A DNA stretch of 64,000 bases from a virus (Duplodnaviria; Caudoviricetes). Positions 16,357-59,670 of the stretch are shown here, one piece after another. Where the stretch lies: IMG/VR virus record IMGVR_UViG_2645727714_000001, positions 1 through 64,000 of that record; one strand, written 5' to 3'. A program made the translations under genes and the position numbers. Each line of letters opens with the position of its first letter. The stretch's first letter is position 1. The notes under the pieces are model-generated. The model saw only the letters and a program-made list of their open reading frames with translations. It did no database searches and had not been told where the DNA came from.

Positions 16357-16571
16357 CAGTCCTCGATCTCCTGGGTCAGGTCGGCGTCGATCCAGCGGTG
16401 TCCGCGCCCGGACGTCGGCTGGACCAAAAGCTGGGTGCGGCCGTAGCTGACCCGGGCGTCGTGCACCCGCACGCCAACGAGCACCTTGCCGGTGGTGATG
16501 GAGGTGGCCGGGGCGAGCCACAGCAGCTCAGCCCTGGTGCGGGCGAGCTCGCGGGCCTGGTCGAGCGTCAC
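16356..16571 (-). CDS. Hypothetical protein
   Basis: GTGA overlap with the ardC-like gene. Confidence 0.6.
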   Translation of the reverse strand: MTLDQARELARTRAELLWLAPATSITTGKVLVGVRVHDARVSYGRTQLLVQPTSGRGHRWIDADLTQEIED

Positions 16572-17521
16572 GCCGCTTCCTCCGCCCGTTCGGCGCCGCG
16601 CCGGGGCCGCTCGACCCCGAGCTCGGCGAGGATCCGCTCGGCGGTGTCGGCCACCCGCTGGGCGGAGGCCTTGACCGCTCCGTCGCCCTCGCCGGCCCAG
16701 TGAGCGACATAGGGGACCGAGTACGCCAGCGTGTCCAGTCCGCAGAGGTCCGCGACGATGCAGGCCACGGACTCGGCCTCCACCTCCCGGACGTGGCCGG
16801 ACATGTCCGCGGTGTGGCCCAGCAGGACGTGCGCCAGCTCGTGGCACAGGGTCTTCGCGGCCTGCGCCGGGTCGACGCCCTCGCGGATCCGCACCACCCG
16901 TGTCTCGTGGTTGACGTGGCCGTAGGCCCGGCCGTCACCGCCTGCGGATCCCCGCTCGATCGCGTAACCGGCGGCGGCCACCTGCCTGGCCAGGCCATCC
17001 CAGAGCCCAGCGGGGGCGTCCCCGCGCAGCTCCACCGGCAGCTCCGGATCGACTCGGGCGGGCGGCTCGACGAGCTGGGAGACGTCTACGACGGGTACGA
17101 GGATGAAGCCGCGCTGGACGAGCGTGGCCGTCTTTGGTTCCGCGCCGGGCTCGCTCGCGGTTCCTTCGGCCGGGGTGTCCTGCTGCTGGAGCTGGACCCG
17201 GCTGCTGGTGGGCTTCCAGATCTTGATCTGCGTCTCGCCCTTGCGCATGCGGCACCCGGCGTCGTTCCAGGCCTTCAGCGGACGGACGTCCGTGGCATCC
17301 GGGCACTGCATCAGGATCATGATCTGGTTGCCCACGGAGTAGTTCAGCCACCGGCGGGAGGCGAGGAACTGGCGCCAGCCGGTCTCGGTGGTCAGCCGCT
17401 CGACTCCGGCGGCGAGCTGGGCGCGGGCGGTCTCGATCCGCTCGGCGCGCTGCTCCGGGGTGAGGGCGTAGCGGCTCTTGCTGGACGAGCGGCTGGTGCG
17501 CTTGCGGGTGTCCGTTGACAC
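16568..17521 (-). CDS. ardC: ArdC-like anti-restriction protein (ssDNA-binding domain + HExxH metallopeptidase-like domain)
   Basis: WRQFL...YSVGNQIMILMQ.P.AT.V...AW..G..MRKGE; KTLCHELAH..EVEAESVA. Confidence 0.85.
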   Translation of the reverse strand: MSTDTRKRTSRSSSKSRYALTPEQRAERIETARAQLAAGVERLTTETGWRQFLASRRWLNYSVGNQIMILMQCPDATDVRPLKAWNDAGCRMRKGETQIKIWKPTSSRVQLQQQDTPAEGTASEPGAEPKTATLVQRGFILVPVVDVSQLVEPPARVDPELPVELRGDAPAGLWDGLARQVAAAGYAIERGSAGGDGRAYGHVNHETRVVRIREGVDPAQAAKTLCHELAHVLLGHTADMSGHVREVEAESVACIVADLCGLDTLAYSVPYVAHWAGEGDGAVKASAQRVADTAERILAELGVERPRRGAERAEEAA

Positions 17522-18158
17522 GTGCGCTCCTTGGTGCGGCGAGAGGGTGGAACGAGAGAGGGAGAGAGGGCCCGGGGCATGGCTGTGCATGGGTGCCGGC
17601 TGGCACCGGGCCCCGGTGGCTAGCGGGCGGTCTTGTCGGGGGTGTCGTCTCCGGGTTGCGCGTCGTCGTTCTGGCGCTCGATCACGAAGCGGGCCATGCT
17701 CCCGGCCTCGATGTACTGGGCACAGAAGTAGGCGCCCGCCCCGATCAGGGTGAACAGGACGGCGCTGAGGACGCTGGCCATGGTCAGAACTCCTTGCGGT
17801 TGCTGTGGTGGGTGGCGGTGAGCGAGGTCAGCGGGGGCCCAGCTTGCGCGGCGGGACGAACCCGCGGGGGTGGCGGTGCTGCGGCAGTCCCCGGCGGCGC
17901 GCTCCGGCCCGGCGCGGCGGGCGGGTGCACCACTCCGCGACGTCGGCCTGGGCGTCGGGGTCGACGGAGGCGCTCAGGGCGAGGCGGGCCAGGCGGCTCG
18001 GGTCAGCGGCGGTGGTCATGGTCAGCTCTCCGATCCGGAGTCGGGGTGGCGGCGCTTGCGAAGCAAGCGCATGAGGGCGTCGAGTGCGCCGATGCTGTCC
18101 AGCACCGGCAGGAAAAGCAGGGCGGCCACGAGCGGGCCGAGCGCGAGTAGCCAGGCCA

Positions 18159-19292
18159 TCACGCACCCGCCCCGGCCAGCCGGTACCGGACGGCCTTGCC
18201 GCGCGAGCCCTTGCCGTCAGCGACCATGCGGCCATCGGTCACGAGGCCGTCCAGCTCGCGGCGCACGCGCTCGATGTCAGCCGCGCTCGCGTCCTTGCCG
18301 ATCCAGGCGGCGGCGACTTCGGGGGCGGTGAGGCCTTCGGGCTGGCCGCTCGCGACCACGTCCACCACGTCCCGCGGGTCAAGCGCGAGCTTGACGTCGG
18401 CCTCCTTGACCGTGATGCCGCGACCGAGCAGCCACAGCCGGGCGTCGAAGGCATCGCGGCTGCCGACCCGCTCGAAGGCCAGGCGCAGCGCGTCAACGCC
18501 GGTCATGGTGCGCAGCAGGGTGACCTCGCGGACCCGGGCAATGGCCTCGTCCACGTCGGTGATGCCCTCGCGCTGGGCCAGCTTCCAGGCGGCCCAGGTC
18601 TCGCGGGTGGCCACCGACGGCAGCCACCGCTTGCCGAAGTCTCCGATCTTGACGCCCTGGAACCGCAGGCCCTCGTCGATCCGCTTCCACCGGCGCGCGA
18701 ACGCGAGCGTGATCTCCAGCAGTGCCGGGCCGGTCAGGCTCATTACCGGGAAGAACCACTCGTCCCACTCGGCGGTCGTGCTGGTGCCGAAGCCGTAGTT
18801 GATCCCGGCGCTGATCAGCGCGATGGACCAGGAGACCAGGTGGAAGGCCCCGCCGTGCTCGCCGCGCAGGGCGGCGATGGTGACCATGGTTATGCCGACG
18901 ATGGCGGTGCCATCCAGGGCGAGCAGCGGCAGCCACACCAGCCAGGTGTCCAGGTCCAGGCCGTGGATCGGCTCGCCGGCCCACTTGATCAGGTGGGCGC
19001 CGGACAGGGCGGTCGGGGCGATGATCACGGCGGCCAGCGCGACGACCGCTACGCGCCACAGCTTCTCGGTGGCGGTCAGCTTCGCCTTCGGCTCGCCCTT
19101 CTTCTCGCTTGGGGCCTCGGCGCGCTCGGGCTTCGGCGCCTTCCTCGTCTTCCACTCGCCCCCCCGCGGTGACACGGAGGCCACGTCCGGGTCCTGTAGG
19201 CCGTAGTCCATCGTGTCGCCCTCCGGATCTCCGGCGGGCGGTGTGTCGTACGTCTCAGTCGGGGGCGGAACGGTCCCGTTCCTGCTGCTCAC
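18159..19292 (-). CDS. DUF2637 / Spd-like membrane protein of actinomycete conjugative elements
   Basis: ~4 TM with PLLALDG, then RWLP..TRETWAAWKLA..EGI and a C-terminal wHTH-like segment; divergent from the TraB-like gene. Confidence 0.72.
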   Translation of the reverse strand: MSSRNGTVPPPTETYDTPPAGDPEGDTMDYGLQDPDVASVSPRGGEWKTRKAPKPERAEAPSEKKGEPKAKLTATEKLWRVAVVALAAVIIAPTALSGAHLIKWAGEPIHGLDLDTWLVWLPLLALDGTAIVGITMVTIAALRGEHGGAFHLVSWSIALISAGINYGFGTSTTAEWDEWFFPVMSLTGPALLEITLAFARRWKRIDEGLRFQGVKIGDFGKRWLPSVATRETWAAWKLAQREGITDVDEAIARVREVTLLRTMTGVDALRLAFERVGSRDAFDARLWLLGRGITVKEADVKLALDPRDVVDVVASGQPEGLTAPEVAAAWIGKDASAADIERVRRELDGLVTDGRMVADGKGSRGKAVRYRLAGAGA

Positions 19293-19367
19293 AGCACTCT
19301 CCTTGGCGTGTGGCGCCGTCCCGCTCGGCTGGGTGACGGCGACTTTCACATCGCCATCTTACATGGT

Positions 19368-19394
19368 CTGTAGTCAATGTGTAGGCTGTAGTCA
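19368..19394. promoter_or_regulatory. Operator-like tandem CTGTAGTCA repeat in the divergent spd/tra promoter region
   Basis: CTGTAGTCAATGTGTAGG-CTGTAGTCA; 17/18 match inverted at 28705-28722. Confidence 0.6.
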
Positions 19395-19433
19395 TGTTCG
19401 AAACCGGCACCGGCCACGAGGAGGGACGCGCTG

Positions 19434-21710
19434 ATGGCATCGGTTAAGAGGGCTCCGACCAAGCGGCGCAAGCCCCTCTCGACGTACGACCTCAGCGACC
19501 CGCGCTTCTGGATCGTTGGGGGGTGGCGTCTTGGCCTCGGGTCCGTTCGCGTAAGTGCCGCTGGGCACGACCGCTGGCGAACCTGGGGCGACATCGCAAC
19601 GCCCGTGGCCGGTGCCGGCTCTCTCTACCTGCTGTCCGCCTTGGGTGCGGACCCGCTCGGCCCGCTGGGGCCGACGCTGCTGGAGTCCGACCTCTTCGAC
19701 CTGACCGACCCCTACCGCCTGACCGCCGCCGCCCTCGGCGGCACCGCCGCACTGCTGCACCAGCGGTCCGACACCGCACGCGGCCATCGAGAGCGGCGCG
19801 CTGTGCTCAAGGCCTTCGCTGAGCTGAACGCGGGCGAGGGCCCGACGCTGCTGCACCCGTCCGGCCGCCCGGTGCAGGTGAAGCTGCCTGAGCCGACCCT
19901 GGCTGGCGCCCGATTCGTGATGAAGATTCCCGACGGCGTCACCGAGGCAGAGCTGCTCCAGGCCGCCCAGCGCCTGGCCCCGATGCTCAAAGGCCGTGTG
20001 TCGATGCGCCCCACGGTCGCCCCGGCCTCCGGCCGCAAGGTCCTGGCCGCCCTGGCCAGCGGTGCCGCGACCAAGACGGTCACCGTGGCTCGCAGGGCCC
20101 GGACCGTCGAGGCAACTGAGCCGAAGCCGGCGCGCAACCCCCTTGAGGAATTCCTCGCCTGCTCGCACGTCGAGGTCAACATCCGCCGGCGCGAGACGCT
20201 GAACACGACCGTGCCCTGGGAGGGCCTGGAGGAGATCCGCCGCGCGGGCGCGAACTACAAGGGCCGCTACGTGCAGGATCCGTGGCACATCGGTCGTGAC
20301 GAGGACGGTAAGTCCGTCTACGACACGATCTTCGCCCGCAACAAGTTGTCCGGAGGTGAGGCCGGAAGCGGAAAGTCCACCGGTGAGCACGTCGACATCT
20401 GCGCGGTGAGTCAGGACCCCCGCGCTCGGAACTTCTTCATCGATCCGTCCGGTGGTGCGGAGTTCGGCTTCTGGGAGCCGCTGGCCGCCCCGATCAAGGG
20501 TCGCTGCGGTGTGGCCTACACGGTGGAGGATGCGTACGCGCTCCTGCGTGACCTGCACGCCGAGGGGGTGGCCGCGCTTCAGTGGATGGCCGACACCGCG
20601 AACGAGCGCGAGGCCGCCGGACTGCCGCGGACCAACGTCGCCCGTGGCGAAACGACCACGTGGATCTGGATAGACGAGCTGCTGGCGCTGACCCGCCATC
20701 CGGATAAGAAGCTGGCGGACGCTGTCTCCTTCCTGCTGTTCGACATCATCGGGCGGCTCCGCAAGGTCGGCTACCACGTCGTCTGTTCGACACTGAAGCC
20801 GACTGGCGATGTCATCCCGACCTTCGTGCGGGACTTGATCACCATCAAGCAGGTGTTCCGCTGCACGACGGCGGACGCCTCGACGGCCGTGCTGGGCGAC
20901 AAGATCTGGGCGCTGCTCGGCTACGGCGGCCACAAGATCGAGATGAAGGCCCCGAAGGGGATCTCCTACCTGCTCGGCACCGAGGGCTACCCGCTGCGCA
21001 TGCGCTCGGCCTTCGTGGACAACGAGGTTCGTGACGGCCAGGAGATCAGCGAGCGGCACGAGGTGCTCAACGCGGCCCTGCGTCTGCGCGGGCTGCCCGA
21101 GGTGCCGCCGTTGGTGAAGAACATCGACCCGGCGCGCGCCGCACTGCTGGACCCGTCCCGCCCGCAGGTTCGGGAGTCGGTCACCCTCACGCCCCCGGCG
21201 TCGGCCGGCGCGGACGTCACCCCGGTGCCCGCGCAGCGAGTCTCCACCGCGAAGGTGGCCGCCCCGACCCCAGCTCCCGCTCCTGTCGAGGTGGAGCCCG
21301 AGCCCTCCCCCAACGTCGCCGAGACCGAGGAGGTCGACAGCCTTGCCGAGGTGCTCCGCGTCGCCGCCGAGATGGCCGTCGAGGCCGGACACGTCACCCC
21401 CCGGATGCTCCAGGTCCGTCTCGGGTTGGACTTCGACGCCTGCGCCTGGGTGCTGGGCCAGCTGACCGACCGCAAGGTCATCGGTTCCGCCTCCGGCGAT
21501 TCCGGGGCGCGCAAGGTCCTGGCCTCGGCCGCGGACCTGGACCGCTTGCTCGCTGACGAGGACGAGGACAACCCCCCGCCTCCCGCCGACCCGACCGAGA
21601 CCGCCCGCGCGGGCTACGCGCAGCGCCAGCACCGCCGCCGTCCCGACAAGCGCACCCGTAACGCCGCCCGTGAGACCGCAGGCGCCGGCTCCAGCTCAAG
21701 GGAGGGCTGA
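19434..21710 (+). CDS. TraB-like FtsK/SpoIIIE DNA translocase with gamma-like wHTH
   Basis: Walker A GGEAGSGKST, IDPSGG.E, Walker B WIWIDE, GRLRKVG; C-terminal TPRMLQVRLGLDFD.C..VL.QL....VIG....GARKVL. Confidence 0.85.
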   Translation: MASVKRAPTKRRKPLSTYDLSDPRFWIVGGWRLGLGSVRVSAAGHDRWRTWGDIATPVAGAGSLYLLSALGADPLGPLGPTLLESDLFDLTDPYRLTAAALGGTAALLHQRSDTARGHRERRAVLKAFAELNAGEGPTLLHPSGRPVQVKLPEPTLAGARFVMKIPDGVTEAELLQAAQRLAPMLKGRVSMRPTVAPASGRKVLAALASGAATKTVTVARRARTVEATEPKPARNPLEEFLACSHVEVNIRRRETLNTTVPWEGLEEIRRAGANYKGRYVQDPWHIGRDEDGKSVYDTIFARNKLSGGEAGSGKSTGEHVDICAVSQDPRARNFFIDPSGGAEFGFWEPLAAPIKGRCGVAYTVEDAYALLRDLHAEGVAALQWMADTANEREAAGLPRTNVARGETTTWIWIDELLALTRHPDKKLADAVSFLLFDIIGRLRKVGYHVVCSTLKPTGDVIPTFVRDLITIKQVFRCTTADASTAVLGDKIWALLGYGGHKIEMKAPKGISYLLGTEGYPLRMRSAFVDNEVRDGQEISERHEVLNAALRLRGLPEVPPLVKNIDPARAALLDPSRPQVRESVTLTPPASAGADVTPVPAQRVSTAKVAAPTPAPAPVEVEPEPSPNVAETEEVDSLAEVLRVAAEMAVEAGHVTPRMLQVRLGLDFDACAWVLGQLTDRKVIGSASGDSGARKVLASAADLDRLLADEDEDNPPPPADPTETARAGYAQRQHRRRPDKRTRNAARETAGAGSSSREG

Positions 21711-21713
21711 TCC

Positions 21714-22004
21714 ATGGAGATCGCCGCGATCGCCGCCGAGGCAATCCTGACCATCTACTTCTTCCTGCTGGTCATTCGCTGGGGCGTGGACCTGCTGACC
21801 CGGGTGGGCCTGTTGCGTGAGCCGAACCGGGGCGTGGCGCTGGCCCTGGAAGGGCTGCGTACCACCACCGATCCGCTGCTGGGCCCGATCGGCAAGCGCG
21901 TGCCGCCGCTGCGGTTCGGGTCGCTCGCCTTCGATCTCTCGTTCCCGCTGCTGCTGATCCTGCTGCCCATCGTCAACGCCTTCATCACCGCGCTCGCCGG
22001 CTGA
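21714..22004 (+). CDS. YggT-family membrane protein (YlmG/SepG-like)
   Basis: IYFFLLVIRW..., TTDPLLGPIGKRVPPLRFGSLAFDLSF. Confidence 0.85.
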   Translation: MEIAAIAAEAILTIYFFLLVIRWGVDLLTRVGLLREPNRGVALALEGLRTTTDPLLGPIGKRVPPLRFGSLAFDLSFPLLLILLPIVNAFITALAG

Positions 22005-22026
22005 GACCCGGCAGGGAGGAACCGCC

Positions 22027-22569
22027 ATGGCGAAGACCGTGAAGTGCCCCCGCAAGGGCTGTGAAAAGGAGTTCAAGGTCGGCTTGGTCGGCAGCCTCGT
22101 AGGCCACCGCAAGCTGTGCAAGACCTGCCGTGTTGACCTGGTGGACCCGGGCGTCCGGGTCAAGGGCGGCGTCGGTGAGATGCGATTCGCGCCCTGGCAC
22201 AAGCCAGACCGTCGCCACGTCACCAACTCCATGCTCGGCAACCGCCCACAGAGCGCCGCCGAGCGCAAGCGCGCCGCCGTCATGCACGGACTGGCCAACA
22301 ACCCCAACTTCCAGGTTCGTCCCGGCGATTTCGAGCAGCCGGACATGACCATCCAGCTTGACCCCGACTCGGGCACGGCCGAGGTCAACTTCGGCCCGGA
22401 CTTCGGCTTCCTGGACGCCCACCGCGGCCGTGTCGGCCGGGCGCGTTTCGCAGCTGATCGCGGCCTCGGTCCCGCCCCCGAGATCGATGAGACAGAACTG
22501 CTCGGCTCCTCCTACGACTTCGACGGCGGCGTCATTGACAGCGAGGTCCTCAACACCACCTACCTCTGA
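22027..22569 (+). CDS. Hypothetical protein with Cys/His-rich N-terminus
   Basis: GGAGG RBS; CPRKGC..H..CKTC. Confidence 0.7.
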   Translation: MAKTVKCPRKGCEKEFKVGLVGSLVGHRKLCKTCRVDLVDPGVRVKGGVGEMRFAPWHKPDRRHVTNSMLGNRPQSAAERKRAAVMHGLANNPNFQVRPGDFEQPDMTIQLDPDSGTAEVNFGPDFGFLDAHRGRVGRARFAADRGLGPAPEIDETELLGSSYDFDGGVIDSEVLNTTYL

Positions 22570-22610
22570 CCTCAACACCTACCTGGATGTCCCTCAGAAG
22601 GGAGACCACC

Positions 22611-22841
22611 ATGCCACCTCCGTACCGCTGGCCGGGCACCGTGTTGGTGCACGACCAGCAGGTCCCGATCCCGGGGCCGGGCGAGCAGAGCGACCCCGCC
22701 TGGACGCTGGAAAGCGTCCAGGCCGACAACGCCGACGAGCACGAGGCGGGCCGTCACGGCCCGGACTGCCCCGGCGACTGTGCCGAGCGCACCTACGCCC
22801 GCTGGTCGGGCCTGCTGAACACAGAGCTGGTGGCGGCATGA
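22611..22841 (+). CDS. Hypothetical protein
   Basis: GGGAG RBS; coupled to next gene. Confidence 0.55.
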   Translation: MPPPYRWPGTVLVHDQQVPIPGPGEQSDPAWTLESVQADNADEHEAGRHGPDCPGDCAERTYARWSGLLNTELVAA

Positions 22842-23167
22842 GATGGGGCAGGCGCACACCCGCCCCGGTCACCTCGACCGAGCTGGTTCCCACCGAGGCG
22901 CCGGCCCTGGTGACCTGGCAGAAGACGTGCGCTCTGGAGAGCACTGACCGCCGCTACCTGGCCGGTGAGGCGTTGCTGCACGCGGAGTTCGCCGCGCAGG
23001 CCACCGACAGCGCCGGCTTCGGGGCCCTGAACGACTTCCCCACGGAGGAGGTGGCCTCCTACGCCGATGTCGCCCTCGCCCACAGCGCCACCTCGCAGGC
23101 CTACTCCGCCATGCTGGCCGCCCTGAGGCCCGGTGATCTTCCGCGCGACGACGAGGACGACCAGTGA
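22838..23167 (+). CDS. Hypothetical protein, paralog of 23988-24224
   Basis: Shared AL..AEFAA.A.D.AG and SA.SQA.SA.LAA motifs. Confidence 0.65.
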   Translation: MRWGRRTPAPVTSTELVPTEAPALVTWQKTCALESTDRRYLAGEALLHAEFAAQATDSAGFGALNDFPTEEVASYADVALAHSATSQAYSAMLAALRPGDLPRDDEDDQ

Positions 23168-23418
23168 TCGCGGACGGCGTGGCCTCGGCGCTGGCCAACG
23201 GCAGCCTGTCCGCGGACCCGGCCAGGGCGGGCTTGGCTGGCTATGCGCTGCTTCGCCTCTCCCTCGTCGCGCACCGACTGCGCGACGGAGGAGACCTTCT
23301 GACTCCATACGACGCCACCCGGGCCAGCGTGCCGGATCGAGACGACCGTCCCAGCCTGACCTCCGGCCGCTTGGAGCTGGCCGCCAACACCGCCGAACCG
23401 GCATGGCCGACCTTCTGA
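23164..23418 (+). CDS. Hypothetical protein
   Basis: GTGA coupling. Confidence 0.55.
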   Translation: MIADGVASALANGSLSADPARAGLAGYALLRLSLVAHRLRDGGDLLTPYDATRASVPDRDDRPSLTSGRLELAANTAEPAWPTF

Positions 23419-52210: not shown

Positions 52211-52695
52211 CCGCCTCCCATGAGACATCGACCGCCACCGTCCCGGGTCTGGATTCGCTCGATGTCGGAAGACTCTATGACGCCAGCCTTATTGAGAGGC
52301 TCAGTCGCAAGGACCCTGAGGTTCGCGCGTTCGTCATGGAGCGCATGAAGGCCGAGCACGACAGCCTCATCGAACAGCGCCGCGAGCGGACCCGCCGGGC
52401 AGGCAGTGAGGCGAGTCACCGGTACCGGCAAGCCTGGGCGGAGATAGGTGTTCGTGTAGCCGGGATCGGCTTAGGCTTCGCTGCCGTCATAAATCTCTCG
52501 GCGCTCGCCAAGCACTACAGCGACATCGGCCAAGCCGGCTACGGCGTCCTCATCGTCACGAGCGGCGCCGTGGCGATCGCCGGCATCTTCGTCCTCGGCA
52601 AGTTCGTCGGCCGCATGCCGCGAGTTCCGATCAACACACAGAGTCCGCCGCCGGTCGACCCCAGCGCCAACGGAGGCGGCCCGGCCGCACCCTGA
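52207..52695 (+). CDS. 2-TM membrane protein, DUF2335-like
   Basis: Helical N-terminus (DP....FVMERMKAEH) then two TM helices; GTGA-coupled to the EAD1 gene. Confidence 0.6.
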   Translation: MTASHETSTATVPGLDSLDVGRLYDASLIERLSRKDPEVRAFVMERMKAEHDSLIEQRRERTRRAGSEASHRYRQAWAEIGVRVAGIGLGFAAVINLSALAKHYSDIGQAGYGVLIVTSGAVAIAGIFVLGKFVGRMPRVPINTQSPPPVDPSANGGGPAAP

Positions 52696-52713: not shown

Positions 52714-53421
52714 TCAGCCCAGCAGCGCGGCCAGTCGCTCGGCCGAGGTCTTGGCCTTGGCCGGCTCGGGCTTGCGGTCTGCGGCGTCGGCCTTCGGTCG
52801 CTTCGCCGGCTCCGGCTTGGGCCTGGGGAAGAACTCCGGGTAGTCGGCCTTGATCGCCTCCACCTGGTCAGCCAGGCCGGTCACCTCCCCGTCCACGTCC
52901 ACCTCGATGCTGTCCTGGTCCAGCAGGCGGTACAGCCGCGCGAACTTGCCCTCCGACGGCTTGCCGTTCTCGTCGATCAGCGCGGCATTCGCGTCGTGGA
53001 ACGCGGCCTTGGCCGCGGAGCGGACGATGATCGGCTTGTAGCGCCCCTCGGTCTCCTTCGCGGACTCCTCCTGGGCCTCCCTCAGGGCCTTGTCGTGGTC
53101 ACTCTCGCCCTTGCGCTTGTCCGCGGCCACCTGCTCCTTGAGCTTGCGCAGATCGGTGCGGTAGCGGCGTGCCTCCTCCCGAGTGCGGGCCAGGGAGTCC
53201 CGCAGGGTGCGCAGTTCGGACGCGCTCGGCCGGTCCTCGTCGCCGTTGTCGTCCGCGTCCTTGCTGGCGTTCTCGTCGGCGTCCGCGTCGCGGTCGTCGT
53301 CCCCGCCGCCGGACTTCGGGTCGGTCCTGCTCTCCTCCTTGCTGCCGACCTTGCCCTCCTCAGCGCCGGCGTCGTCGGTGTCGTCGTCCTCCGGCTCGGG
53401 CCGGGCGTCCTCGTCTGCCAT
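52714..53421 (-). CDS. Capsid scaffolding protein
   Basis: Acidic N-terminus, REEARRYR coiled coil, GL..QVEAIK..YPE.F. Confidence 0.85.
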   Translation of the reverse strand: MADEDARPEPEDDDTDDAGAEEGKVGSKEESRTDPKSGGGDDDRDADADENASKDADDNGDEDRPSASELRTLRDSLARTREEARRYRTDLRKLKEQVAADKRKGESDHDKALREAQEESAKETEGRYKPIIVRSAAKAAFHDANAALIDENGKPSEGKFARLYRLLDQDSIEVDVDGEVTGLADQVEAIKADYPEFFPRPKPEPAKRPKADAADRKPEPAKAKTSAERLAALLG

Positions 53422-53463: not shown

Positions 53464-54468
53464 TCAGCGGGTTGCTACGGGGACCTGCCGGCCCGGGAAG
53501 TGGCCCTCGCGTACGGCGCGGGCAGCCACCTGACGCACCGAGGCCGGGGCGCCGGCGGGGGAGATCGTGGCCAGCAGCCTGTCGGCCGCGCGCACCCGTG
53601 CGGCGCCTGACTCGCTCGGCAGGGACCAGCCGCGCAACACCGAGCGCACCGCCTCCCGGCGTAGTGCCGCCGCCCAGTCCGCGTCCCGGTCCGGCGCGTA
53701 CGGGATGGTGTGGCACCGGCACCGGGGATGGCGAGGTGCTCCCTTGAGGGCGCCCGCCACCTTCGGTGCGGTGTCGCCGTAGGTGGCGGTCTTGCTCCAG
53801 GTGCCGTCCGCGTCGCACACCACTCCGGCCAGGCGCGTGCAGGCCAGGCAGGCGTCCCGCTCGGCCACCCACACCCGGCGCATCCCGGCGGCCTGGCTGA
53901 CCTCGGCCACGGCATCGTCCACCGCGGAGACCACCACCACGGCGGTGTGCGTCTCCAGCCGGGTGACCGCGCGGCGGGCCTGCCCGAGTGCCATTTCCAG
54001 CGCGGAGTACCCGGAGGCCCGCACCAGCTCGGGCCGCAGCAGGGCCAGCGCGGCCACCTGCTGCTCGCCCACCATCGCGGCCACGGGAGCCAGCGCGGCC
54101 CGCGCGCCGGGGGTAGCACCCCCAGGCGCCGGCACGGGGGGATCAGCGCCTGGAGGTAGCTGCTCACGAGCCTGCCGCACCCCGAGCGCGCGAGCACGCA
54201 CCAACGCGGCCGACAGTGCCCGTGTCGCGATATCGGCGGCACCGGCGAACGCTCCGGCCAGCGCGGTACGCAGCGAGGACAGCAGCCCGACCACCCCGGG
54301 GCCGGCCGGGGCCTCCAGCGCGCCGAACGCGCGCAGCCACCCGCGGGCCGCCACCGTGGCCCACCCAGCCAATCCCGCGGCCAGCTCACCGGCGACGGCC
54401 TCGGTGGTGGCGTCCACCAGCTTGCCCATCTCATGCGCCGCGGCGTCCAGCGCCTCCTGGTCAGGCAC
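53464..54468 (-). CDS. Minor capsid / head morphogenesis (MuF-like) protein
   Basis: WVAERDAC..C..LAG, PRHPRCRC; follows the portal gene. Confidence 0.8.
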   Translation of the reverse strand: MPDQEALDAAAHEMGKLVDATTEAVAGELAAGLAGWATVAARGWLRAFGALEAPAGPGVVGLLSSLRTALAGAFAGAADIATRALSAALVRARALGVRQAREQLPPGADPPVPAPGGATPGARAALAPVAAMVGEQQVAALALLRPELVRASGYSALEMALGQARRAVTRLETHTAVVVVSAVDDAVAEVSQAAGMRRVWVAERDACLACTRLAGVVCDADGTWSKTATYGDTAPKVAGALKGAPRHPRCRCHTIPYAPDRDADWAAALRREAVRSVLRGWSLPSESGAARVRAADRLLATISPAGAPASVRQVAARAVREGHFPGRQVPVATR

Positions 54469-55909
54469 TGGCGTCCTCGTCCGGGGCGTCGATCAGGGCG
54501 CTTACCGCGCGCTCCACCTGCTCCGCGCTGATCACGTTGAGGGCCACCCCGGCCCCGAGGGACTGCACGGCCTGCCCGAGCTTGACCAGCAGGTCGACCT
54601 TCGGCTTGATCTCGTCGCCGCGGTGGTAGCCCCAGGCCTCCACCTGCTCCGCGGAGTAGCCGGACTCCAGCAGGGCCTGCCGGGTGGGAACCCCGGCGTC
54701 GATCTTGGCCTGGATGGCGTTCCAGCCCTCCAGGTCGTCAATGCTGCGCACCGGCGCCCACGCCGGCCGGATCTCCACCTCCTCGCCCAGGCCCGCCGCG
54801 CGGGCCGCGCAGCGCCAGGCGGCTTCGTGGGTGTCGCCGAAGCCGGCGAGGCGGTCCTCGACCTTCTTGTCCAGCGGCGCCTCGGCCGCGCGCAGGCTCT
54901 CCCCGCTGGGCGCGTCCCCGGAGATCTCGAAGAAGTGCGCCGGGGTGGCGGTGGTGGCCCCCATCCACTGCACCATCGCCGTGGCCGGGTCGAGGAACGC
55001 CGCGACATTGGCGGCCTGGAACTCGCCCACCTTGTCCACGTTGCGCAGCCACCACAGCTCCCCAGGCCCAGCACGCAGGGTGGACCGCTCTGCCGTGGGG
55101 GCCTGGGTCTCGTCCTCCTCGTCGAAGCCGCCCGGGTCGTCCGCGTCGCCGCCGGCTACGGCGTAGCGCTGCGGGAAGCCCTGGAAGTCGATCGAGGACA
55201 TCAGGGTGGCCACCAGCTTGGTGATCGCGTTCTGCGGCCCGTAGGCGTTGGCGTGCTCGGGCACCCCGTAGGGCCGGGCGGTGCGCAGGTGAAACACCGG
55301 CACCTCGCCGAGCTCGTGCTCGACCTCGTGGTCGTCATCCTCCCCGTAGGGCTCCCAGTCGCTGTCCACCTCGCCGCGCTGCCTGGGCTGCTCCACCAGC
55401 ACCCACCGCTCCACCCGGTCCGGGTAGTAGAGCGTGGAGCGCAGCCGGCCCGAGGCGGGCAGCCACAGCTTCGCGCCGTAGCGGACCTTCCGCGGGTCCT
55501 CGTCGTCATAGAACGCCCGGGTGGTCAACGGGGAGTTGTGGAACACGTCCACGTCCCCGTCCCTTTCCCCGGGCCACACCAGCAGGTAGGCGTCCCCGTA
55601 CACCTCTGCGTCCCGGTGCGCGTCGGCCACCTCCGCCCGCATCCGGTTGCGGCGCCACTGCGCGGCCAGCCAGTCGGCCGCCGCCTTGTCCGGGGAGGTC
55701 AGGCCCAGCAGGCGCAGCCGCTCCAGCACGGCGTCCACCGGCCGGCAGGCAAGGTTGATCTTGTAGTGGGCGCCGGTGGCCTGGAGCTTCTTGCGGATGG
55801 CCGGTGAGGCGAACACCTCGTCCACCTGCCCCCGGTAGTAGGCCATCGCCTCTTCGTAGCCGGGCCGGGCCTCCCGGATCGCGCACACCGCCGCGGTCAG
55901 GTCCGACAC
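54461..55909 (-). CDS. Portal protein (SPP1 gp6-like)
   Basis: YYRG, N....PVDAV.ERL, YGDAYL.VW, PQNAI.K, FPQRY, PSGESLR. Confidence 0.92.
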   Translation of the reverse strand: MSDLTAAVCAIREARPGYEEAMAYYRGQVDEVFASPAIRKKLQATGAHYKINLACRPVDAVLERLRLLGLTSPDKAAADWLAAQWRRNRMRAEVADAHRDAEVYGDAYLLVWPGERDGDVDVFHNSPLTTRAFYDDEDPRKVRYGAKLWLPASGRLRSTLYYPDRVERWVLVEQPRQRGEVDSDWEPYGEDDDHEVEHELGEVPVFHLRTARPYGVPEHANAYGPQNAITKLVATLMSSIDFQGFPQRYAVAGGDADDPGGFDEEDETQAPTAERSTLRAGPGELWWLRNVDKVGEFQAANVAAFLDPATAMVQWMGATTATPAHFFEISGDAPSGESLRAAEAPLDKKVEDRLAGFGDTHEAAWRCAARAAGLGEEVEIRPAWAPVRSIDDLEGWNAIQAKIDAGVPTRQALLESGYSAEQVEAWGYHRGDEIKPKVDLLVKLGQAVQSLGAGVALNVISAEQVERAVSALIDAPDEDASA

Positions 55910-56893: not shown

Positions 56894-58450
56894 TCAGGCG
56901 TAGGTGCTGGCCGAGCCGGACGGCCCGCTCGGCTTCTTTCGATCAAGGAAGAACCAGACTCCGGTCCCGGTGGCATCGACCACGTCGTCCGTCAGGCCGC
57001 GCGGGTAGGCGAGCATCTCCGTCTCCGCCGCGGGCAGCCGCCGGGCGTGCACCACCTCGGGCAGGCCGTCCGCGCACCGGCGCTGGTAGTGGTTCAGCGT
57101 CCGGGCCGCGCGGAAGTCCTTCGGCTCGGACTGGTGCACAGTGATCACCCGCACCGGCAGGTCGTGCAGGATTTCCAGCCAGGCCTCGCCGCCCTGGTTG
57201 GTCTCGATCAGCACCGCGCCCACCTCCGGGTGCCGCGCGAGCACGCCCAGCACAGTGGTGCGCAGGTCCGCGGGGGGCAGGCGCAGCGAGGCGGCGTAGC
57301 GCACCACGCACCGGCGGATCTTCGGCGCCGGCCGGGCCAGCCCCACCACCGCCAGGCCGTAGGGGTGGGAGGCGGTCTTGGAGGTGGTGGCCGGGTCGAT
57401 CGAGAGCAGCGCCCGCACCAGCGGCGGGTCCGCGTAGACGATGTCCCCCGGCCCCCAGTAGTCCCCGTCCAGCGAGACGGGCTGGTTGGCGAAGTTCTTG
57501 GCGTACGAGCGCGTGTGCTCGATGGACTCCAGGTAGGCCAGCGTCCACTTGCCCGGCCAGCACGAGCGGCGCGTGCCGTCTCCCCGGTCCACGATCGGCG
57601 CGAAGTGGTGCACCGCGAACCGCTCGGCCGCGAGCCGTTCGTCCAGCTCCGCCTCGGGCTCGGTGATGGTCCGCACGAGCTGGTGGATGATCGATCCGGC
57701 CATCACCACCGTGCCCACCACGACCACCCGCGCGAAGGCGTTGAGCGGCAGGATCGCGTCCACGATCGCGACCAGGCGCTTGCTGGCCTGGTACGCGCTG
57801 TACGTGCCCTCGTGGGGCTCGACGTCGTCCAGCACGAGCAGGTCTGGCCGCAGCGCGCCCACCTTCATGCCGAGCACGCCCGCGTCGATGCCTCGCGCGG
57901 CGAACACGAAGCCGCCGCGCTGCTGGATCATGTGCTGGGTGTCGGCCACGGTGGTGCCTCGGGGCCGCGTGGCCGGGGCGCACAGGTCCGGGTAGTCCTG
58001 CCGCAGCAGCGTGTTGGTCTCCAGCTCCCGGCGGAAGGTGTCCAGGTGCTGCTCGGCCTGCACCCCGGCATCGGCGAACGCGGCGATGAACCGCACCCAC
58101 CCGTGCGCGGCGGCCCACAGCGGCAGGATCAGGAACAGGAGAGTGGTCTTGCCCGCGTTGCGCGGGGCCACCCAGACGTCCCGGTGCTCCGCTGGGCTGG
58201 ACGGCGGCAGTGCCCACGTGCGCGCGTGCCGGAACAGCGCGAGGTGGAAGTCGGCGAACGTGATCTCCCCGTTGGTCTCGTCCCCGCGCAGGTGGTGCGG
58301 GCAGTACAGCAGCGCGAAGAGAAGGGGCGAGAGGCGTGTGAGCGTGCGTCGCCCCTCCGGGCTGGCCAGCAGCCGCTCGTCGAACGTGGCGAGCCACCCC
58401 TCCAGGTCGAACGTCTCCGCGTCCGCGTCCGGGCTGTACGGGTCTGCCAC
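56894..58450 (-). CDS. Terminase large subunit
   Basis: APRNAGKTT Walker A, RPDLLVLDD Walker B, SIDPA, IETNQGG, DDVVDA; start approximate. Confidence 0.93.
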   Translation of the reverse strand: MADPYSPDADAETFDLEGWLATFDERLLASPEGRRTLTRLSPLLFALLYCPHHLRGDETNGEITFADFHLALFRHARTWALPPSSPAEHRDVWVAPRNAGKTTLLFLILPLWAAAHGWVRFIAAFADAGVQAEQHLDTFRRELETNTLLRQDYPDLCAPATRPRGTTVADTQHMIQQRGGFVFAARGIDAGVLGMKVGALRPDLLVLDDVEPHEGTYSAYQASKRLVAIVDAILPLNAFARVVVVGTVVMAGSIIHQLVRTITEPEAELDERLAAERFAVHHFAPIVDRGDGTRRSCWPGKWTLAYLESIEHTRSYAKNFANQPVSLDGDYWGPGDIVYADPPLVRALLSIDPATTSKTASHPYGLAVVGLARPAPKIRRCVVRYAASLRLPPADLRTTVLGVLARHPEVGAVLIETNQGGEAWLEILHDLPVRVITVHQSEPKDFRAARTLNHYQRRCADGLPEVVHARRLPAAETEMLAYPRGLTDDVVDATGTGVWFFLDRKKPSGPSGSASTYA

Positions 58451-58473
58451 CCGCGGGCGCTCCAGCAGGGCGG

Positions 58474-58632
58474 TCAGCGCGCCTTCCCCTTCCCCTTGCT
58501 CTTCTTGATCGCGACGAGCTGCTTCACCGCGGCGGCACGGGAGGAGTGGTCGGCCTTCTTGCCGGCAGTCTCGCCGGTGCCCTTCTTCACCACCCGGTGC
58601 TTGCCGCCGCGTTTGGAGATCCGGTACGGCAC
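58474..58632 (-). CDS. Small Lys-rich protein
   Basis: PYRISKRGG...HSSRAAAVKQL.AI. Confidence 0.55.
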   Translation of the reverse strand: MPYRISKRGGKHRVVKKGTGETAGKKADHSSRAAAVKQLVAIKKSKGKGKAR

Positions 58633-58634
58633 GG

Positions 58635-59213
58635 CTACCCCTTCCCGCGCTCGGCGCTCTGGTGGTCCTCGTCCCTCCACTGCCGTGGCGTGCTGTCCGC
58701 GTGGTGCTCGCACAGCAGCAGCGCCCCCCGGCGGGCGTCCGACTCGTAGGCGCCGCGGCGTACCCCCGCCACGAATGCCAGGGCCGCCGGCTGCTCGCAC
58801 CAGCCGAGACCACACCGGTACGACGCTGGCGCCGGGGAGGCCTGCCATCCCATGCGCCACGACCAACGCACCCACAGGCCGGTCCGGCTGGGCCCGCCGG
58901 AGTCAGGGTCTGGGACGAACCGGACCATGCCCTCGGCGAGAGACTGCTCACCCTGGAGGTCCGGCACCTCCGGGAGGAAGAGGTACTCGGTCGCGGCCCG
59001 GCCGCCGAGCTCGGGCGGATAGCAGCCCGGGTCGACCGGTGGCAGGTCCGGGCTCTCCACCAGCACCAGCAGCGCCATCCGCATGAAGTCGGCCGACACC
59101 CCGGCCACCCGCATGCCGGCGGGCAAGGTCAGAAGCTGGGCGATCGTGTCCTCGTCGAGAGTGATCACGGCCCGGCCCGGACGCTCCTCCAGCTCGGTGT
59201 CCCGCTCACCCAT
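58635..59213 (-). CDS. Hypothetical protein
   Basis: Between the terminase subunits; C-terminal C/H cluster. Confidence 0.55.
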   Translation of the reverse strand: MGERDTELEERPGRAVITLDEDTIAQLLTLPAGMRVAGVSADFMRMALLVLVESPDLPPVDPGCYPPELGGRAATEYLFLPEVPDLQGEQSLAEGMVRFVPDPDSGGPSRTGLWVRWSWRMGWQASPAPASYRCGLGWCEQPAALAFVAGVRRGAYESDARRGALLLCEHHADSTPRQWRDEDHQSAERGKG

Positions 59214-59670
59214 CGGCGCGCCCTTCCTGGGTGCCCTGGCGCAGCGCCTCCTCCTCGACCGCGGTCCGCGCCTTGGCCTCACGAATCAGCGCGGCCAGCT
59301 CGATGTCGGCCGGGTCCACGCGGGTGACCTGCACGTCCACCTGCCCGCGCTCGCCCCACCGCTGGGTGTGCCGGCGAGACAGCCAACCCATCGCCGCGCG
59401 CCAGTCCCCCTCGGCCGCCGCTCGTTGGACCACCGTCAGCGCGCGGATCACAGCCTTGGCCTCGGCCTGCTCGTATTCGGCGACGAAGCGGGCGTGCGCG
59501 GTGTCCTCCTGACCCTCCGCGAGGTCCCGGCGGCCGGCGCGCAGCCAGCCCAGCAGCGTGTTCTCCGCGACCCCGGCGAAGCGCGCGGCCTCCACCTGGT
59601 AGGCGCCGATGCCGATGGCGTCGCAGATCCGGGCCTGGACCTCCGGGGTGAGCCCACTGGGCCGGGCCAT
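59206..59670 (-). CDS. Terminase small subunit (HTH type)
   Basis: MARPSGLTPE...IC.AI..G.Y...AA..AGV...TL..W, DWRAA..WL.RR...WG. Confidence 0.78.
   Translation of the reverse strand: MARPSGLTPEVQARICDAIGIGAYQVEAARFAGVAENTLLGWLRAGRRDLAEGQEDTAHARFVAEYEQAEAKAVIRALTVVQRAAAEGDWRAAMGWLSRRHTQRWGERGQVDVQVTRVDPADIELAALIREAKARTAVEEEALRQGTQEGRADG

Follow-up and report, generated by a model that had tools for sequence, protein, structure and literature searches.

The combination of a tailed-phage virion with conjugative functions is not new in principle. The Streptomyces plasmid-phage pZL12/phiZL12 (Zhong et al. 2010, J Bacteriol 192:3747) is described, in the passages of PMC3583192 and PMC4487206 that deal with it, as producing virions and carrying a tra locus, and is reported there to alternate between plasmid and lytic phage. 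AICEs are also known from the genus of the host considered here; those named in the relevant parts of PMC3218068 and PMC2440964 are 10.9–24.3 kb in length, carry replication genes of the RepSA, RepAM, or Prim-Pol type, and are without virion genes, and some, such as pSAM2, have a Nudix (Nud) gene (PMC2440964). The features of the spd operon are described in the introduction of PMC4447253. Furthermore, phiM2 of Streptomonospora litoralis (CP036456, 89,998 bp) is reported to exist in two forms, integrated as a prophage and, at low abundance, as a circular episome; the passages of PMC8448680 that deal with it do not describe its tra-like genes.

The window analyzed here comprises bases 1–64000 of a 90,033-bp provirus record. 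On balance, we favor the reading that the record represents one temperate siphophage genome, 90 kb or more in length, integrated in a Frankia-type actinobacterium, with a DNA-transfer module of the plasmid or AICE kind in its backbone and perhaps two routes of spread. Because the GC content is 72%, genes were called with a codon-bias model and then scanned against Pfam and PHROGs. The whole record was phage-like in content, with phage genes at both ends, and the usual modules of a prophage were present: replication, 7-deazaguanine DNA modification, virion, lysis, and a tyrosine integrase accompanied by a Gp3-like directionality factor (RDF). The integrase gene, at the far right end (88720–90033), is complete, with HxxR and the C-terminal tyrosine, and is the only one in the record. 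CheckV estimated the completeness of the record at 93%. The true ends of the element lie outside the record; a collinear sister record (G002), 95–96% identical in the tra part as well as in the virion part, extends past the left end by 901 bp and there enters a Bro-N antirepressor gene. GC content was even over both parts. No tRNA gene was found in the record, nor was ParA found on the element, and the longest exact direct repeat (20 nt) was not above chance (17–19 nt in 10 shuffles).

The virion operon (34574–59670) lies uninterrupted on the minus strand. Every major gene from terS to the tail fiber is unbroken, the operon looks complete, and all major genes are full length relative to their Pfam and PHROGs profiles, which bears out the apparently intact siphophage late operon recognized in the earlier note. 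It runs from terS (59206–59670; phrog_4102, 9.5e-31) and terL (56894–58450; phrog_38, 1.8e-49) through the genes for the portal (54461–55909; phrog_104, 1.7e-71), MuF-like minor head protein (53464–54468), scaffold (52714–53421), major capsid protein (49900–50856; PF05065, 2.1e-15), connector, terminator, and tail tube to those for the tape measure (38196–41450; PF10145, 2.6e-20), Dit (37345–38196), and the minor tail and fiber proteins, which reach as far as 34574. The TerL protein is 45–49% identical to those of the Streptomyces phages Yara, PHTowN, and KimJongPhill and the Microbacterium phage OscarSo, and 47.6% identical to that of the phiM2 episome. Between the scaffold and capsid genes lies a two-gene insert of low GC content (62–64%) on the plus strand (51044–52695). 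PADLOC gave no match for this insert; its first gene encodes an EAD1 (effector-associated) domain (PF19955, 2.2e-12), and the insert is therefore likely to be a conflict or defense moron.

Other phage genes surround these regions. A 7-deazaguanine DNA-modification cluster (59670–63053, minus strand; FolE, QueE, QueD, QueC, and a DpdA-like transglycosylase, from Pfam and PHROG matches) is followed by a gene with a ParB-like nuclease domain (63050–63700). At the left of the window, on the plus strand, are genes encoding an SF2 helicase (2174–3901; Pfam ResIII, 1.3e-26) and two DUF3987 helicase/primase-like proteins, one with a DnaB-N domain (3898–6054) and one at 6312–7511 (Pfam DUF3987, 2e-72 and 2e-67); these replication genes matched phrog_16 and phrog_2373. 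A NUDIX hydrolase gene is located at 13883–14548 (minus strand; PF00293, 4.4e-16; phrog_1198). Nudix genes are also common in phages. The tra part lies approximately 13 kb to the left of the virion operon, and apart from small ORFs the interval between them (positions 22–34.5 kb) holds only genes for HNH, a phage-type glycosyltransferase, a methyltransferase, and DUF6011, with neither an integrase nor a tRNA gene.

The central gene of the tra part (19434–21710, plus strand) encodes a candidate FtsK/TraB-like dsDNA translocase of 758 amino acids, a P-loop ATPase that matched the FtsK/SpoIIIE-like family phrog_1358 (3.4e-16). Its N-terminal 270 residues are clade-specific and contain only a weakly hydrophobic segment (pSVH1 TraB was similar by the same crude measure); they are followed by the ATPase core (residues ~270–560), with the Walker A motif GSGKST and the Walker B motif WIWIDEL, and by a C-terminal winged-helix (FtsK-gamma-like) domain (~637–706). 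Pfam FtsK_SpoIIIE did not reach an E-value of 0.01 on this protein, and NCBIfam gave nothing; the family profile, when compared with the PDB, matched the FtsK motor 2IUT (1.6e-19) and the FtsK gamma domain (7e-5). The pSVH1 TraB protein was 27% identical over 271 amino acids of the core (E 4e-20), and the best plasmid matches were FtsK/SpoIIIE proteins of small Streptomyces conjugative plasmids (28 of the 32 plasmid records matched were from Streptomyces, including pSVH1, pSG5, and pFP11). The structural model was poor (mean pLDDT 53), and its low-confidence fold agrees with the TraB likeness. In the phylogenetic tree, the translocase clade, for which 1.84 billion representatives yielded only four full-length representative clusters, fell outside the clade of chromosomal FtsK, EccC, and Courthouse gp201 (92/90 support); it was not joined to the Streptomyces TraB proteins, with which the tree forms a polytomy. 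Within 50,697 phage records searched with tblastn, the translocase matched neither Courthouse gp201 nor Mischief19 gp79. No clt-like cluster of direct 8-bp repeats shared with the Parafrankia relative FMc2 was found in or 3′ of the gene, and nowhere did the record show a GntR-type TraR regulator.

Transcribed divergently from the translocase gene is a gene (18159–19349, minus strand) whose 396-amino-acid product is a membrane protein; it has four hydrophobic segments, its C-terminal domain is HTH-like, and it is a candidate for an SpdB/DUF2637-type partner of the translocase. The DUF2637 profile PF10935 was sub-threshold in all five family members (best 0.0023), the nearest ESM Atlas clusters were DUF2637 and SpdB (score 0.85, 193 features, which serves as a lead only), and pairwise comparison, HMM searches, and hhalign gave no significant match to pSVH1 SpdB2 or true DUF2637 proteins. 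Directly downstream, its start overlapping the stop of the membrane/HTH gene in the gene calls, is a gene for a 46-amino-acid single-pass membrane protein (18022–18162, minus strand; hydrophobic segment at residues 3–21). Close by, an ArdC-like protein (16568–17521, minus strand) joins an ArdC N-terminal-like DNA-binding part to an HExxH M78/IrrE-like metalloprotease part (PF06114, 2.6e-6); residues 51–151 share 32% identity with the phiM2 protein that is annotated as ArdC family, and in the PDB it gave only a weak IrrE match. Of the divergent DUF2637/Spd-like and FtsK/TraB-like pair beside ardC described in the earlier note, the layout and the ATPase were confirmed and the DUF2637 assignment was not clean, while the ardC call holds as an ArdC-like gene whose PF08401 (ArdC-N) match (2.2e-4, 21.9 bits) is just under the cut-off of 22.6. 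The AT-richer control region between the divergent genes (19350–19433), with repeated TGTAG(G/T)C motifs, an RBS, and a start codon, was conserved in four lineages (alignment of this record, FMc2, L056, and L058). A 14-nt motif of this region occurs three times in the window (0.09 expected); the two remaining copies lie at 19195 and 8338, the latter upstream of the gene at 8385. Immediately after the translocase gene comes a plus-strand run of nine small genes (21714–24224, from gene calls) whose start and stop codons overlap or abut, the first encoding a YGGT-family protein with two transmembrane segments (PF02325, 1.5e-8; TM scan). This layout resembles an spd operon, but is non-specific. 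Judged from these sequence features, the candidate transfer module would consist of the translocase, the divergent membrane/HTH protein, whose architecture is SpdB/DUF2637-like, the small membrane protein, the small-gene operon, and the nearby ArdC-like protein.

Comparison with relatives places this module within the phage backbone. In Parafrankia FMc2, the translocase is 77% identical at the amino acid level and has the same gene order with early, lysis, and RDF genes (56–87% identical), next to an integrase and tRNA-Leu. The module is under purifying selection, with a dS of 0.53 and a dN/dS of 0.28 for the translocase; nine other backbone genes had dS values of 0.28–0.68 and dN/dS values of 0.20–0.63. 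In this relative, the TraB-like module shares both the gene order and the degree of divergence of the backbone genes, which indicates that it is part of the phage backbone. The virion block of FMc2 is gone by a clean 30.3-kb deletion, with the TraB-like gene intact, and the tail-fiber gene is truncated, so the virion loss is a secondary deletion. Such a loss points to a possible path by which a phage turns into an AICE-like element. The FMc2 draft is fragmented, and the membership of its contigs in one element is not settled. Two genes of the small-gene run (21714–22004 and 22027–22569) are kept beside the translocase in FMc2 and L056, and the membrane/HTH gene adjoins the TraB-like gene every time in FMc2, L056, and L058. 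Four metagenome contigs carry a translocase homologue, with the module neighbors conserved in three; L056 and L058 (~50% identity) keep the membrane partner, and in L059 (40% identity) phage helicase and primase homologues lie directly beside the TraB-like gene. Six records of at least 27 kb carry a homologue (this record [G000], G002, the FMc2 contig, G003, G004, and phiM2), and terL and portal-type genes are on the same record in five of the six (four of five lineages, counting G000 and G002 once). In G003, a translocase from the same clade, 57% identical, accompanies terL and portal genes that differ, and the 34-kb provirus G004 has clear matches to DUF2637 (6e-19) and PF01580 (1.4e-9). The pair of DUF2637 and FtsK-like genes recurs in unrelated actinobacterial prophages and the phiM2 episome, modules of this kind being embedded among virion genes that are unrelated, and DUF2637 adjoins the Tra gene in the plasmids pFP11 and pPaSha2. 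The earlier note would have counted homologous prophages that consistently lack tra genes against its reading; FMc2 does lack one of the two modules, but this is no refutation, because it lost the virion block and keeps tra.

If the module acts in transfer, the element would first excise, and the hexameric ATPase may bind the circular dsDNA phage genome at some site through its winged-helix domain. With the help of the membrane partner, the DNA would be pumped over hyphal cross-walls or into touching recipient mycelium, where the ArdC-like protein could protect it on entry; the element would afterwards re-integrate or turn lytic. It would then spread both by virions and directly through hyphae. 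Of the earlier proposal of one replicon with two such routes, the single element is well supported; the hyphal route we infer, and neither clt repeats nor TraR were found.

The translocase and its membrane partner could instead serve the phage's own cycle, a reading that we consider possible but rather doubtful: they may move or segregate prophage or replicating DNA into hyphal compartments or spores, mediate superinfection exclusion, or act in septal DNA entry or exit during lytic growth. The earlier statement that this is not a standard tailed-phage module was overstated, given that FtsK-like translocases are annotated in plaque-forming cultured actinophages and that pZL12 dates from 2010; such genes are without known function in cultured phages, and a phage-internal role is therefore possible. 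The phage family that PHROGs holds for them (phrog_1358) and the missing clt and TraR are in line with such a role, as is the conserved operator-like motif that ties the module promoter to another early phage operon, at 8338. However, Courthouse gp201, a genuine FtsK alpha/beta motor, clusters with the chromosomal FtsK proteins and not with the translocase clade, the nearest plasmid relatives of which are conjugative TraB proteins, and a purely lytic-cycle role would hardly explain why the virion-less FMc2 keeps the translocase gene intact and under purifying selection. The same selection, together with dN/dS values of 0.20–0.63 in the other nine compared genes, speaks against a cryptic remnant, in which prophage or module would be non-functional and their combination without biological role; the loss of the whole virion block in FMc2 and the foreign low-GC insert within the capsid operon would fit such decay, but the full-length virion genes, the complete integrase, and the CheckV estimate make it improbable.

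A separate AICE or integrated plasmid (tra/spd/ardC), nested in or adjacent to an ordinary prophage, would account for gene types typical of AICEs and plasmids and for the nearby NUDIX gene, and the record ends are not true element ends. We nevertheless regard two elements as very improbable. Consistent with the earlier observation of no integrase or att-like junction between the two parts, the region from around 8 to 34 kb is free of integrase and tRNA genes, of any AICE-type Rep (RepSA, DUF3631, Prim-Pol), and of direct repeats exceeding chance, and phage genes flank the module on both sides. The match of its synteny and divergence to the phage backbone in FMc2, the phage helicase/primase genes abutting the translocase gene in L059, and similar modules inside compact prophages such as G004 point the same way. 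Because the module is syntenic and equally diverged and the pair recurs in unrelated prophages, the sequences support well that the tra and virion parts are one element, and a nested AICE is unlikely.

Regarded as a phage with a transfer module, the element shares features with several known systems. Like AICEs, it has a tyrosine integrase for integration, an FtsK-type Tra candidate, and a Nudix gene, but it differs in its length of at least 90 kb, in replicating with genes of the phage type, and in its full complement of virion and lysis genes. With the TraB/Spd systems of the Streptomyces plasmids pSVH1, pSG5, pFP11, and pIJ101 it shares an ATPase of ~760 amino acids with an FtsK-like core and C-terminal winged helix, a neighboring membrane protein gene, and a string of overlapping small genes after it; here, however, the ATPase forms its own clade, the partner gene is divergent rather than co-directional, and clt repeats, TraR, and a detectable SpdB2 were not found. 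The cultured actinophages (Mycobacterium cluster J, e.g., Courthouse gp201, and Streptomyces phage Mischief19 gp79) also carry FtsK-family ATPases, of unknown role, with no DUF2637 neighbor detected beside either gene, and Courthouse gp201 differs in being a 442-amino-acid motor. The phiM2 prophage/episome likewise combines a siphophage operon with a DUF2637 protein, a 718-amino-acid FtsK-like ATPase (42 bits against the core profile of the translocase), an ArdC family protein, and DUF6011, HIT, WhiB, and exonuclease genes, but it is distant: only 11 of the 165 proteins of the record matched it (tblastn, E 1e-4), and its translocase sits on a very long branch. A search of the plasmid collection with terL returned no Streptomyces record, and pZL12 and its relative pSLE1 are likened here from published descriptions, a likeness of kind rather than of demonstrated descent. 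As described in the passages cited above, pZL12 differs in being an autonomous plasmid with ParA and ParB, whereas the present element is integrated; in the same accounts, pZL12, like the present element, is a ~90-kb replicon of a mycelial actinomycete with a large phage structural operon, and its conjugal transfer locus consists of a major tra gene and adjacent genes.

The 90,033-base record IMGVR_UViG_2645727714_000001, whose bases 1–64000 form the window, is classed as a provirus by IMG/VR, with an estimated completeness of 93% (CheckV), and Pfam, PHROGs, and NCBIfam scans detected phage genes from one end of it to the other. Because its GC content of 72% rendered raw ORF lists useless, genes were called with a codon-bias model, which yielded 106 genes in the window and 165 in the whole record. 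The first part (1–8 kb) encodes a NADAR protein, a Mom-like protein, an SF2 helicase, and two DUF3987 helicase/primase proteins; small genes then occupy a long interval (8–34 kb), followed by the virion operon (34574–59670, minus strand) and a 7-deazaguanine modification cluster (59670–63053). Beyond the window lie the lysis cassette, composed of an endolysin (65073–65957) and neighbouring TM proteins, and to the right early genes, exonucleases, WhiB, a Gp3-like directionality factor (86431–87675), and a complete tyrosine integrase (88720–90033), the stop codon of which is the last triplet of the record. The record was trimmed at gene borders. A near-identical sister record (G002), collinear and 95–96% identical, reaches another 901 bp to the left, into a gene for a Bro-N antirepressor, indicating that the true left end of the element lies outside the present record.

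In the virion operon, terS, terL, the portal, a MuF-like protein, the scaffold, the capsid, connectors, the tail tube, chaperones, a 1084-aa tape measure, Dit, minor tail proteins, and the fibre matched their profiles (Pfam, PHROGs) over the full length, and terL was 45–49% identical to those of Streptomyces phages, including Yara and PHTowN, and of Microbacterium phage OscarSo. The full virion set, together with the lysis cassette, the integrase, and the directionality factor, makes up the gene set of a temperate siphophage. Between the scaffold and major capsid genes, a two-gene insert on the opposite strand (51044–52695, plus strand) has a GC content of 62–64%, versus 72% elsewhere; its first protein (388 aa) carries an EAD1 effector-associated domain (2.2e-12), its second (162 aa) has no family, and the insert looks like a conflict or defence moron within the head operon. 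Two large genes between the head genes and the connector genes (45151–48456, minus strand), which are unusual in the head–tail region of a siphophage, encode a 605-aa protein without a family (local GC approximately 76%) and a 492-aa protein with an E1_FCCH-like domain. The NADAR and Mom-like genes (1060–2177) and the FolE/QueE/QueD/QueC/DpdA-like cluster adjoining terS (59670–63053) suggest that the phage DNA is probably hypermodified, in the 7-deazaguanine manner, an anti-restriction trait that would matter for transferred DNA too. A 25-nt inverted repeat (10424–10489; 96% complementary, with a 16-nt spacer), centred on the palindromic word CGGACGTCCG, is located at the 3′ end of the gene at 10127–10561, which is followed by 545 nt without a called gene. 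Five of the 16 copies of CGGACGTC in the record fall within 300 nt at this inverted repeat, and the cluster could be a candidate origin or protein-binding site.

The tra part consists of a 758-aa FtsK/TraB-like ATPase (hereafter, the translocase; 19434–21710, plus strand), a divergently encoded 396-aa membrane/HTH protein (the membrane partner; 18159–19349, minus strand), an ArdC-like gene (16568–17521, minus strand), and small genes. The translocase has the P-loop ATPase core of the FtsK/SpoIIIE type: Walker A (GSGKST) and Walker B (WIWIDEL) motifs are visible in the sequence, phrog_1358 matched it at 3.4e-16, and its family profile matched the FtsK motor 2IUT (1.6e-19) as well as FtsK gamma winged-helix chains (7e-5), while Pfam PF01580 did not reach E 0.01. 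The FtsK_gamma profile PF09397 gave 0.0048 in the translocase and 3.1e-6 in its orthologue from Parafrankia sp. FMc2, both under the Pfam cut-off, and segment 637–706 of the predicted structure (pLDDT approximately 70–86) matched 2J5P (TM 0.77 by target). The profile matches and the model thus identify a C-terminal winged-helix domain, with a predicted role in DNA recognition. The model of the whole protein was of low confidence (pLDDT 53), so that its FtsK and TcpA fold matches add little. In BLASTP, the translocase (758 aa) was 27% identical to the TraB of pSVH1 (772 aa) over 271 aa (E 4e-20). Among 72,556 plasmid records, 32 matched, of which 28 are from Streptomyces; the top matches were FtsK/SpoIIIE proteins encoded by small conjugative plasmids of Streptomyces, including pSVH1, the source of the reference TraB.

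Three features of TraB systems are present in the window: the ATPase core, the C-terminal winged helix, and an adjoining membrane protein with a trailing operon. Two others, the clt repeats and the GntR-type TraR (described in an excerpted account of TraB systems, PMC4447253), were not found. With the exception of one GC-only word, no 8-mer occurring at least three times within 250 nt in the 16–29 kb region was also clustered in FMc2, a screen that a degenerate site could escape, and no GntR-type TraR/KorA regulator was detected among the 165 called proteins with Pfam or in the scanned subset with NCBIfam. Sequence and context suggest that the translocase works like a TraB, which makes it a candidate member of the TraB family proper. 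NCBIfam returned nothing for the tra-region proteins, and PADLOC returned only weak matches, to a NUDIX model and, for the translocase, to mad8 (3.7e-4). The translocase family is tiny, with nine homologues among 5.8 billion proteins in a word-indexed search and four full-length representative clusters among 1.84 billion representatives in an exhaustive profile search; approximately 160 further proteins in the latter (E ≤1e-30), mostly of 420–600 aa, shared the ATPase core alone. Two further homologues were located on contigs of 47 kb and 33 kb, and a copy with 96% identity is recorded on a 565-kb contig of Frankia sp. CcI49. A tblastn search of 50,697 phage records yielded three weak matches, from Staphylococcus and Bacillus, and no others, and among 56 species genomes of the family of FMc2, only FMc2 itself had a match at E ≤1e-20. 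No public sequencing run, RNA runs included, was listed as containing window positions 16000–24000.

The membrane partner had been labelled DUF2637/Spd-like in the earlier note, a label that needs correction. PF10935 matched all five members of the family below threshold (best 0.0023; 0.074 in the window's protein, over profile positions 2–150 of 161), and the ESM Atlas neighbours were DUF2637 and SpdB clusters (0.85, 193 shared features), which we take as a lead only. Against the label, three direct comparisons failed: BLASTP found no match between the membrane partner and SpdB2 of pSVH1, the family HMM matched none of 237 test sequences, including the DUF2637 proteins of a compact provirus (G004) and of the Streptomonospora litoralis prophage phiM2, and hhalign against true DUF2637 proteins gave a probability of 0.2%. 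ArdC anti-restriction proteins combine an N-terminal DNA-binding domain with a C-terminal metalloprotease domain. In the ArdC-like protein, PF08401 scored 21.9 bits (cut-off 22.6) and PF06114 (HExxH) scored 27.7 bits (cut-off 22), and a 32% match to the ArdC family protein of phiM2 was obtained (1.8e-5). The 84-bp spacer between the divergent translocase and membrane-partner genes is conserved in four lineages and contains repeated TGTAG(G/T)C words. Three copies of the 14-nt motif TGTAG(G/T)C(T/C)GTAGTC are present in the window, versus 0.09 expected: one between the divergent tra genes, in their promoter region (19380–19393), one within the 5′ part of the membrane-partner gene (19195–19208), and one (8338–8351) 34 nt upstream of the gene at 8385, ahead of another early operon. 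This placement suggests that one regulator governs the tra pair and this early operon. The tra promoter region has a conserved, operator-like repeat, though no TraR gene was found.

Homologues of the translocase were found in six records of at least 27 kb, and terL and portal-type genes occurred on the same record in five of the six. The translocase on G003, a 27-kb metagenomic viral contig, falls in the same clade (57% identity) and is truncated by the contig end; at a distance of 13 kb lie a terL (phrog_2) and a portal (phrog_859) that differ from those of the window. The compact 34-kb provirus G004 has a full, unrelated siphophage set and an integrase, and at one end a clear DUF2637 gene (6e-19), a small gene, and a PF01580 ATPase (1.4e-9). 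The FtsK-like protein of G004 (L020:1399–3309) also has a weak C-terminal match to DUF3631 (5.7e-4), the RepAM-type replication domain of actinomycete integrative conjugative elements (AICEs), which hints at a further mixing of AICE and phage parts. The 89,998-bp circular record of phiM2 (CP036456) contains a siphophage operon with a terL 47.6% identical to that of the window, a DUF2637 protein, a 718-aa FtsK-like protein, and the ArdC family protein; phiM2 was found both integrated and as a low-abundance episome, according to an excerpted account (PMC8448680). The Tra genes of the plasmids pFP11 and pPaSha2 each have a DUF2637 gene immediately upstream, indicating that this pairing is a plasmid hallmark that these phages share. 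On pPaSha2 (Pseudonocardia alni, CP052773; 42 kb), where DUF2637 directly precedes the FtsK-type gene (L055, 3640–7425), a gene annotated as ‘holin’ is located approximately 1 kb away, and the plasmid might represent another phage-plasmid candidate that bears a tra module.

The closest comparison is provided by Parafrankia sp. FMc2, in which the translocase orthologue (77% identical) lies on a 46-kb contig in the same gene order. The contig carries the membrane partner (68% identical), the next genes downstream of the translocase, and an HNH gene, continues with the endolysin, early genes, exonucleases, and the Gp3-like factor (56–87% identical), and then shows a different integrase, adjoined by a tRNA-Leu. 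Relative to FMc2, the dS (0.53) and dN/dS (0.28) of the translocase were within the range of nine other backbone genes (dS 0.28–0.68, dN/dS 0.20–0.63), indicating that the module travelled with the backbone under purifying selection. For the 41 genes called from 35.1 to 65.1 kb, the three examined FMc2 contigs yielded no homologue, and the terL and capsid queries from the window matched nowhere in the 9-Mb draft. At the nucleotide level, FMc2 11315–11591 matches window positions 34574–34848, the 3′ part of the tail-fibre gene, and FMc2 11564–12368 matches record positions 65162–65957, the endolysin from about codon 30. In FMc2, 30.3 kb is absent and a truncated gene remains as a scar; the gap is a deletion in the FMc2 lineage rather than an insertion in the lineage of the window. 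The FMc2 translocase itself is intact: its reading frame stays open, free of stops, over 773 codons.

Two exact copies of the 18-nt sequence CTGCCCCGACCACCCGGA lie 33 nt apart in the window (34508–34558), shortly ahead of the tail-fibre gene's convergent end and at the border where FMc2 homology resumes. The FMc2 draft is fragmented, and the relevant contigs are C520, C526, and C490. Homologues of the first eight genes of the window were located on a third contig, C526, and could be part of a second related element. A second contig contains a perfect 54-bp copy of the 3′ end of the tRNA-Leu, beside genes for Pol III alpha, clamp, and SSB. At the loci concerned (L035:1077–2870, corresponding to C520 21077–22870, and L016:12286–12369), this repeat is situated inside the 3′ end of a serine-integrase gene that is part of an apparent other integrative element, with regulators, a Rep-like gene, and methyltransferases; therefore, two mobile elements seem to be arranged in tandem at the tRNA-Leu site of FMc2.

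The observation in the earlier note, an apparently intact siphophage virion operon with TraB-like and ardC genes to its left, was confirmed by Pfam, PHROGs, profile, and plasmid matches, apart from the DUF2637 label. The virion operon and the candidate conjugal transfer locus, to which a transfer function is attributed from its genes, are on one record with nothing delimiting either. A nested AICE, to which the TraB-like genes would belong, is very unlikely: no tRNA genes delimiting the tra part were found, and Pfam and NCBIfam identified neither an integrase nor an AICE-type Rep in the 8–34 kb region. The longest exact direct repeat in the record was 20 nt, versus 17–19 nt in ten shuffles, searches for direct repeats and att sites in the window and the record gave only chance-level matches, and the GC content is even in the tra and virion parts. 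These repeat, tRNA, and integrase searches agree with the earlier reading that no integrase or att-like junction separates the two parts. Conserved synteny is a stronger argument for one element than the lack of borders. The tra module keeps its order in FMc2, and terL and portal-type genes accompany the translocase homologue in four of five lineages when the two near-identical Frankia records are counted once. On two short metagenome contigs, the membrane partner remains adjacent to the translocase, and one of the two also retains the downstream genes; on a third, homologues of the phage helicase, primase, and following gene directly precede, upstream, a translocase with 40% identity. A single element is thus highly probable.

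The main rival explanation assigns the translocase a phage-internal role, and we consider it improbable. FtsK-like translocases are annotated in cultured actinophages. In a tree of 23 ATPase cores, the clade of the window's translocase (98/99) lay outside the one that unites chromosomal FtsK, type VII EccC, and mycobacteriophage Courthouse gp201 (92/90), and formed a polytomy with the pSVH1/pSG5/pFP11 TraB clade. That the element is conjugative is reasonable to suppose from its genes, with confidence evenly poised, and the combined explanation, one prophage with two routes of spread, is modestly favoured. A wider proposal, which is tentative and on balance doubtful, is that a rare temperate-phage lineage found in Frankia and other filamentous actinobacteria drives its excised genome through hyphae as dsDNA with a TraB-type pump of its own, and that loss of the virion block gives rise to AICE-like conjugative elements. 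Pumping of excised phage dsDNA through hyphae would constitute a second, particle-free infection route, and an event such as the 30.3-kb deletion in FMc2, which removed the virion block but kept an intact translocase, the integrase, and the tRNA-Leu junction, would turn a phage into an AICE-like element. If this is true, at least some AICE-like elements were born from prophages. The boundary between two textbook routes of gene transfer is blurred by elements that are phage and conjugative element at once. The element in the window and its natural virion-less derivative in FMc2, the most interesting by-product of this analysis, form a concrete pair for asking whether a TraB-type pump lets a prophage spread particle-free in the mycelium and whether AICE-like elements arise from phages. 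No isolated Frankia phage is known to us, and the genetic toolkit for this genus is poor; therefore, an inducible, self-transferring element of Frankia could be of practical use.

Full-text literature searches for DUF2637, FtsK-like DNA translocase, or TraB-like in combination with phage found no account of such a phage module, with DUF2637 papers judged by their titles and the start of their abstracts. In excerpted accounts, AICEs comprise Int, Rep, and Tra, with a Rep of the RepSA, RepAM/DUF3631, or Prim-Pol type (Ghinet et al. 2011 PMC3218068; te Poele et al. 2008 PMC2440964), and the AICEs named there are 10.9–24.3 kb in size and without virion genes (PMC3218068, PMC2440964). An integrase is present here, but approximately 67 kb from the Tra candidate. 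AICE identity was rejected for the window's element, which has a size of at least 90 kb, a full virion and lysis set, and no AICE-type Rep. Among plasmid-phages, PhiNon1 of Nonomuraea is described, in part of the source, as both circular and integrated at a tRNA (PMC5431353), and pSLE1, which is related to pZL12 (a Streptomyces plasmid-phage; Zhong et al.), is annotated for phage particle proteins after pZL12 in the passages concerned (PMC3583192, PMC4487206). As in pZL12, the virion operon of the window's element shares a replicon with a transfer locus, the transfer function here being predicted from genes. Whereas the pZL12 kind is maintained autonomously by RepA and ParA/ParB, no ParA or RepA was found in the window's element, which has an integrase instead, and its sole ParB likeness is a nuclease-domain gene beside the modification cluster. 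To our knowledge, pZL12 is the only case of an actinomycete phage and conjugative element studied at the bench; the kind itself has therefore already been shown once, and what is new here is an integrated variant of it from the Frankia group.
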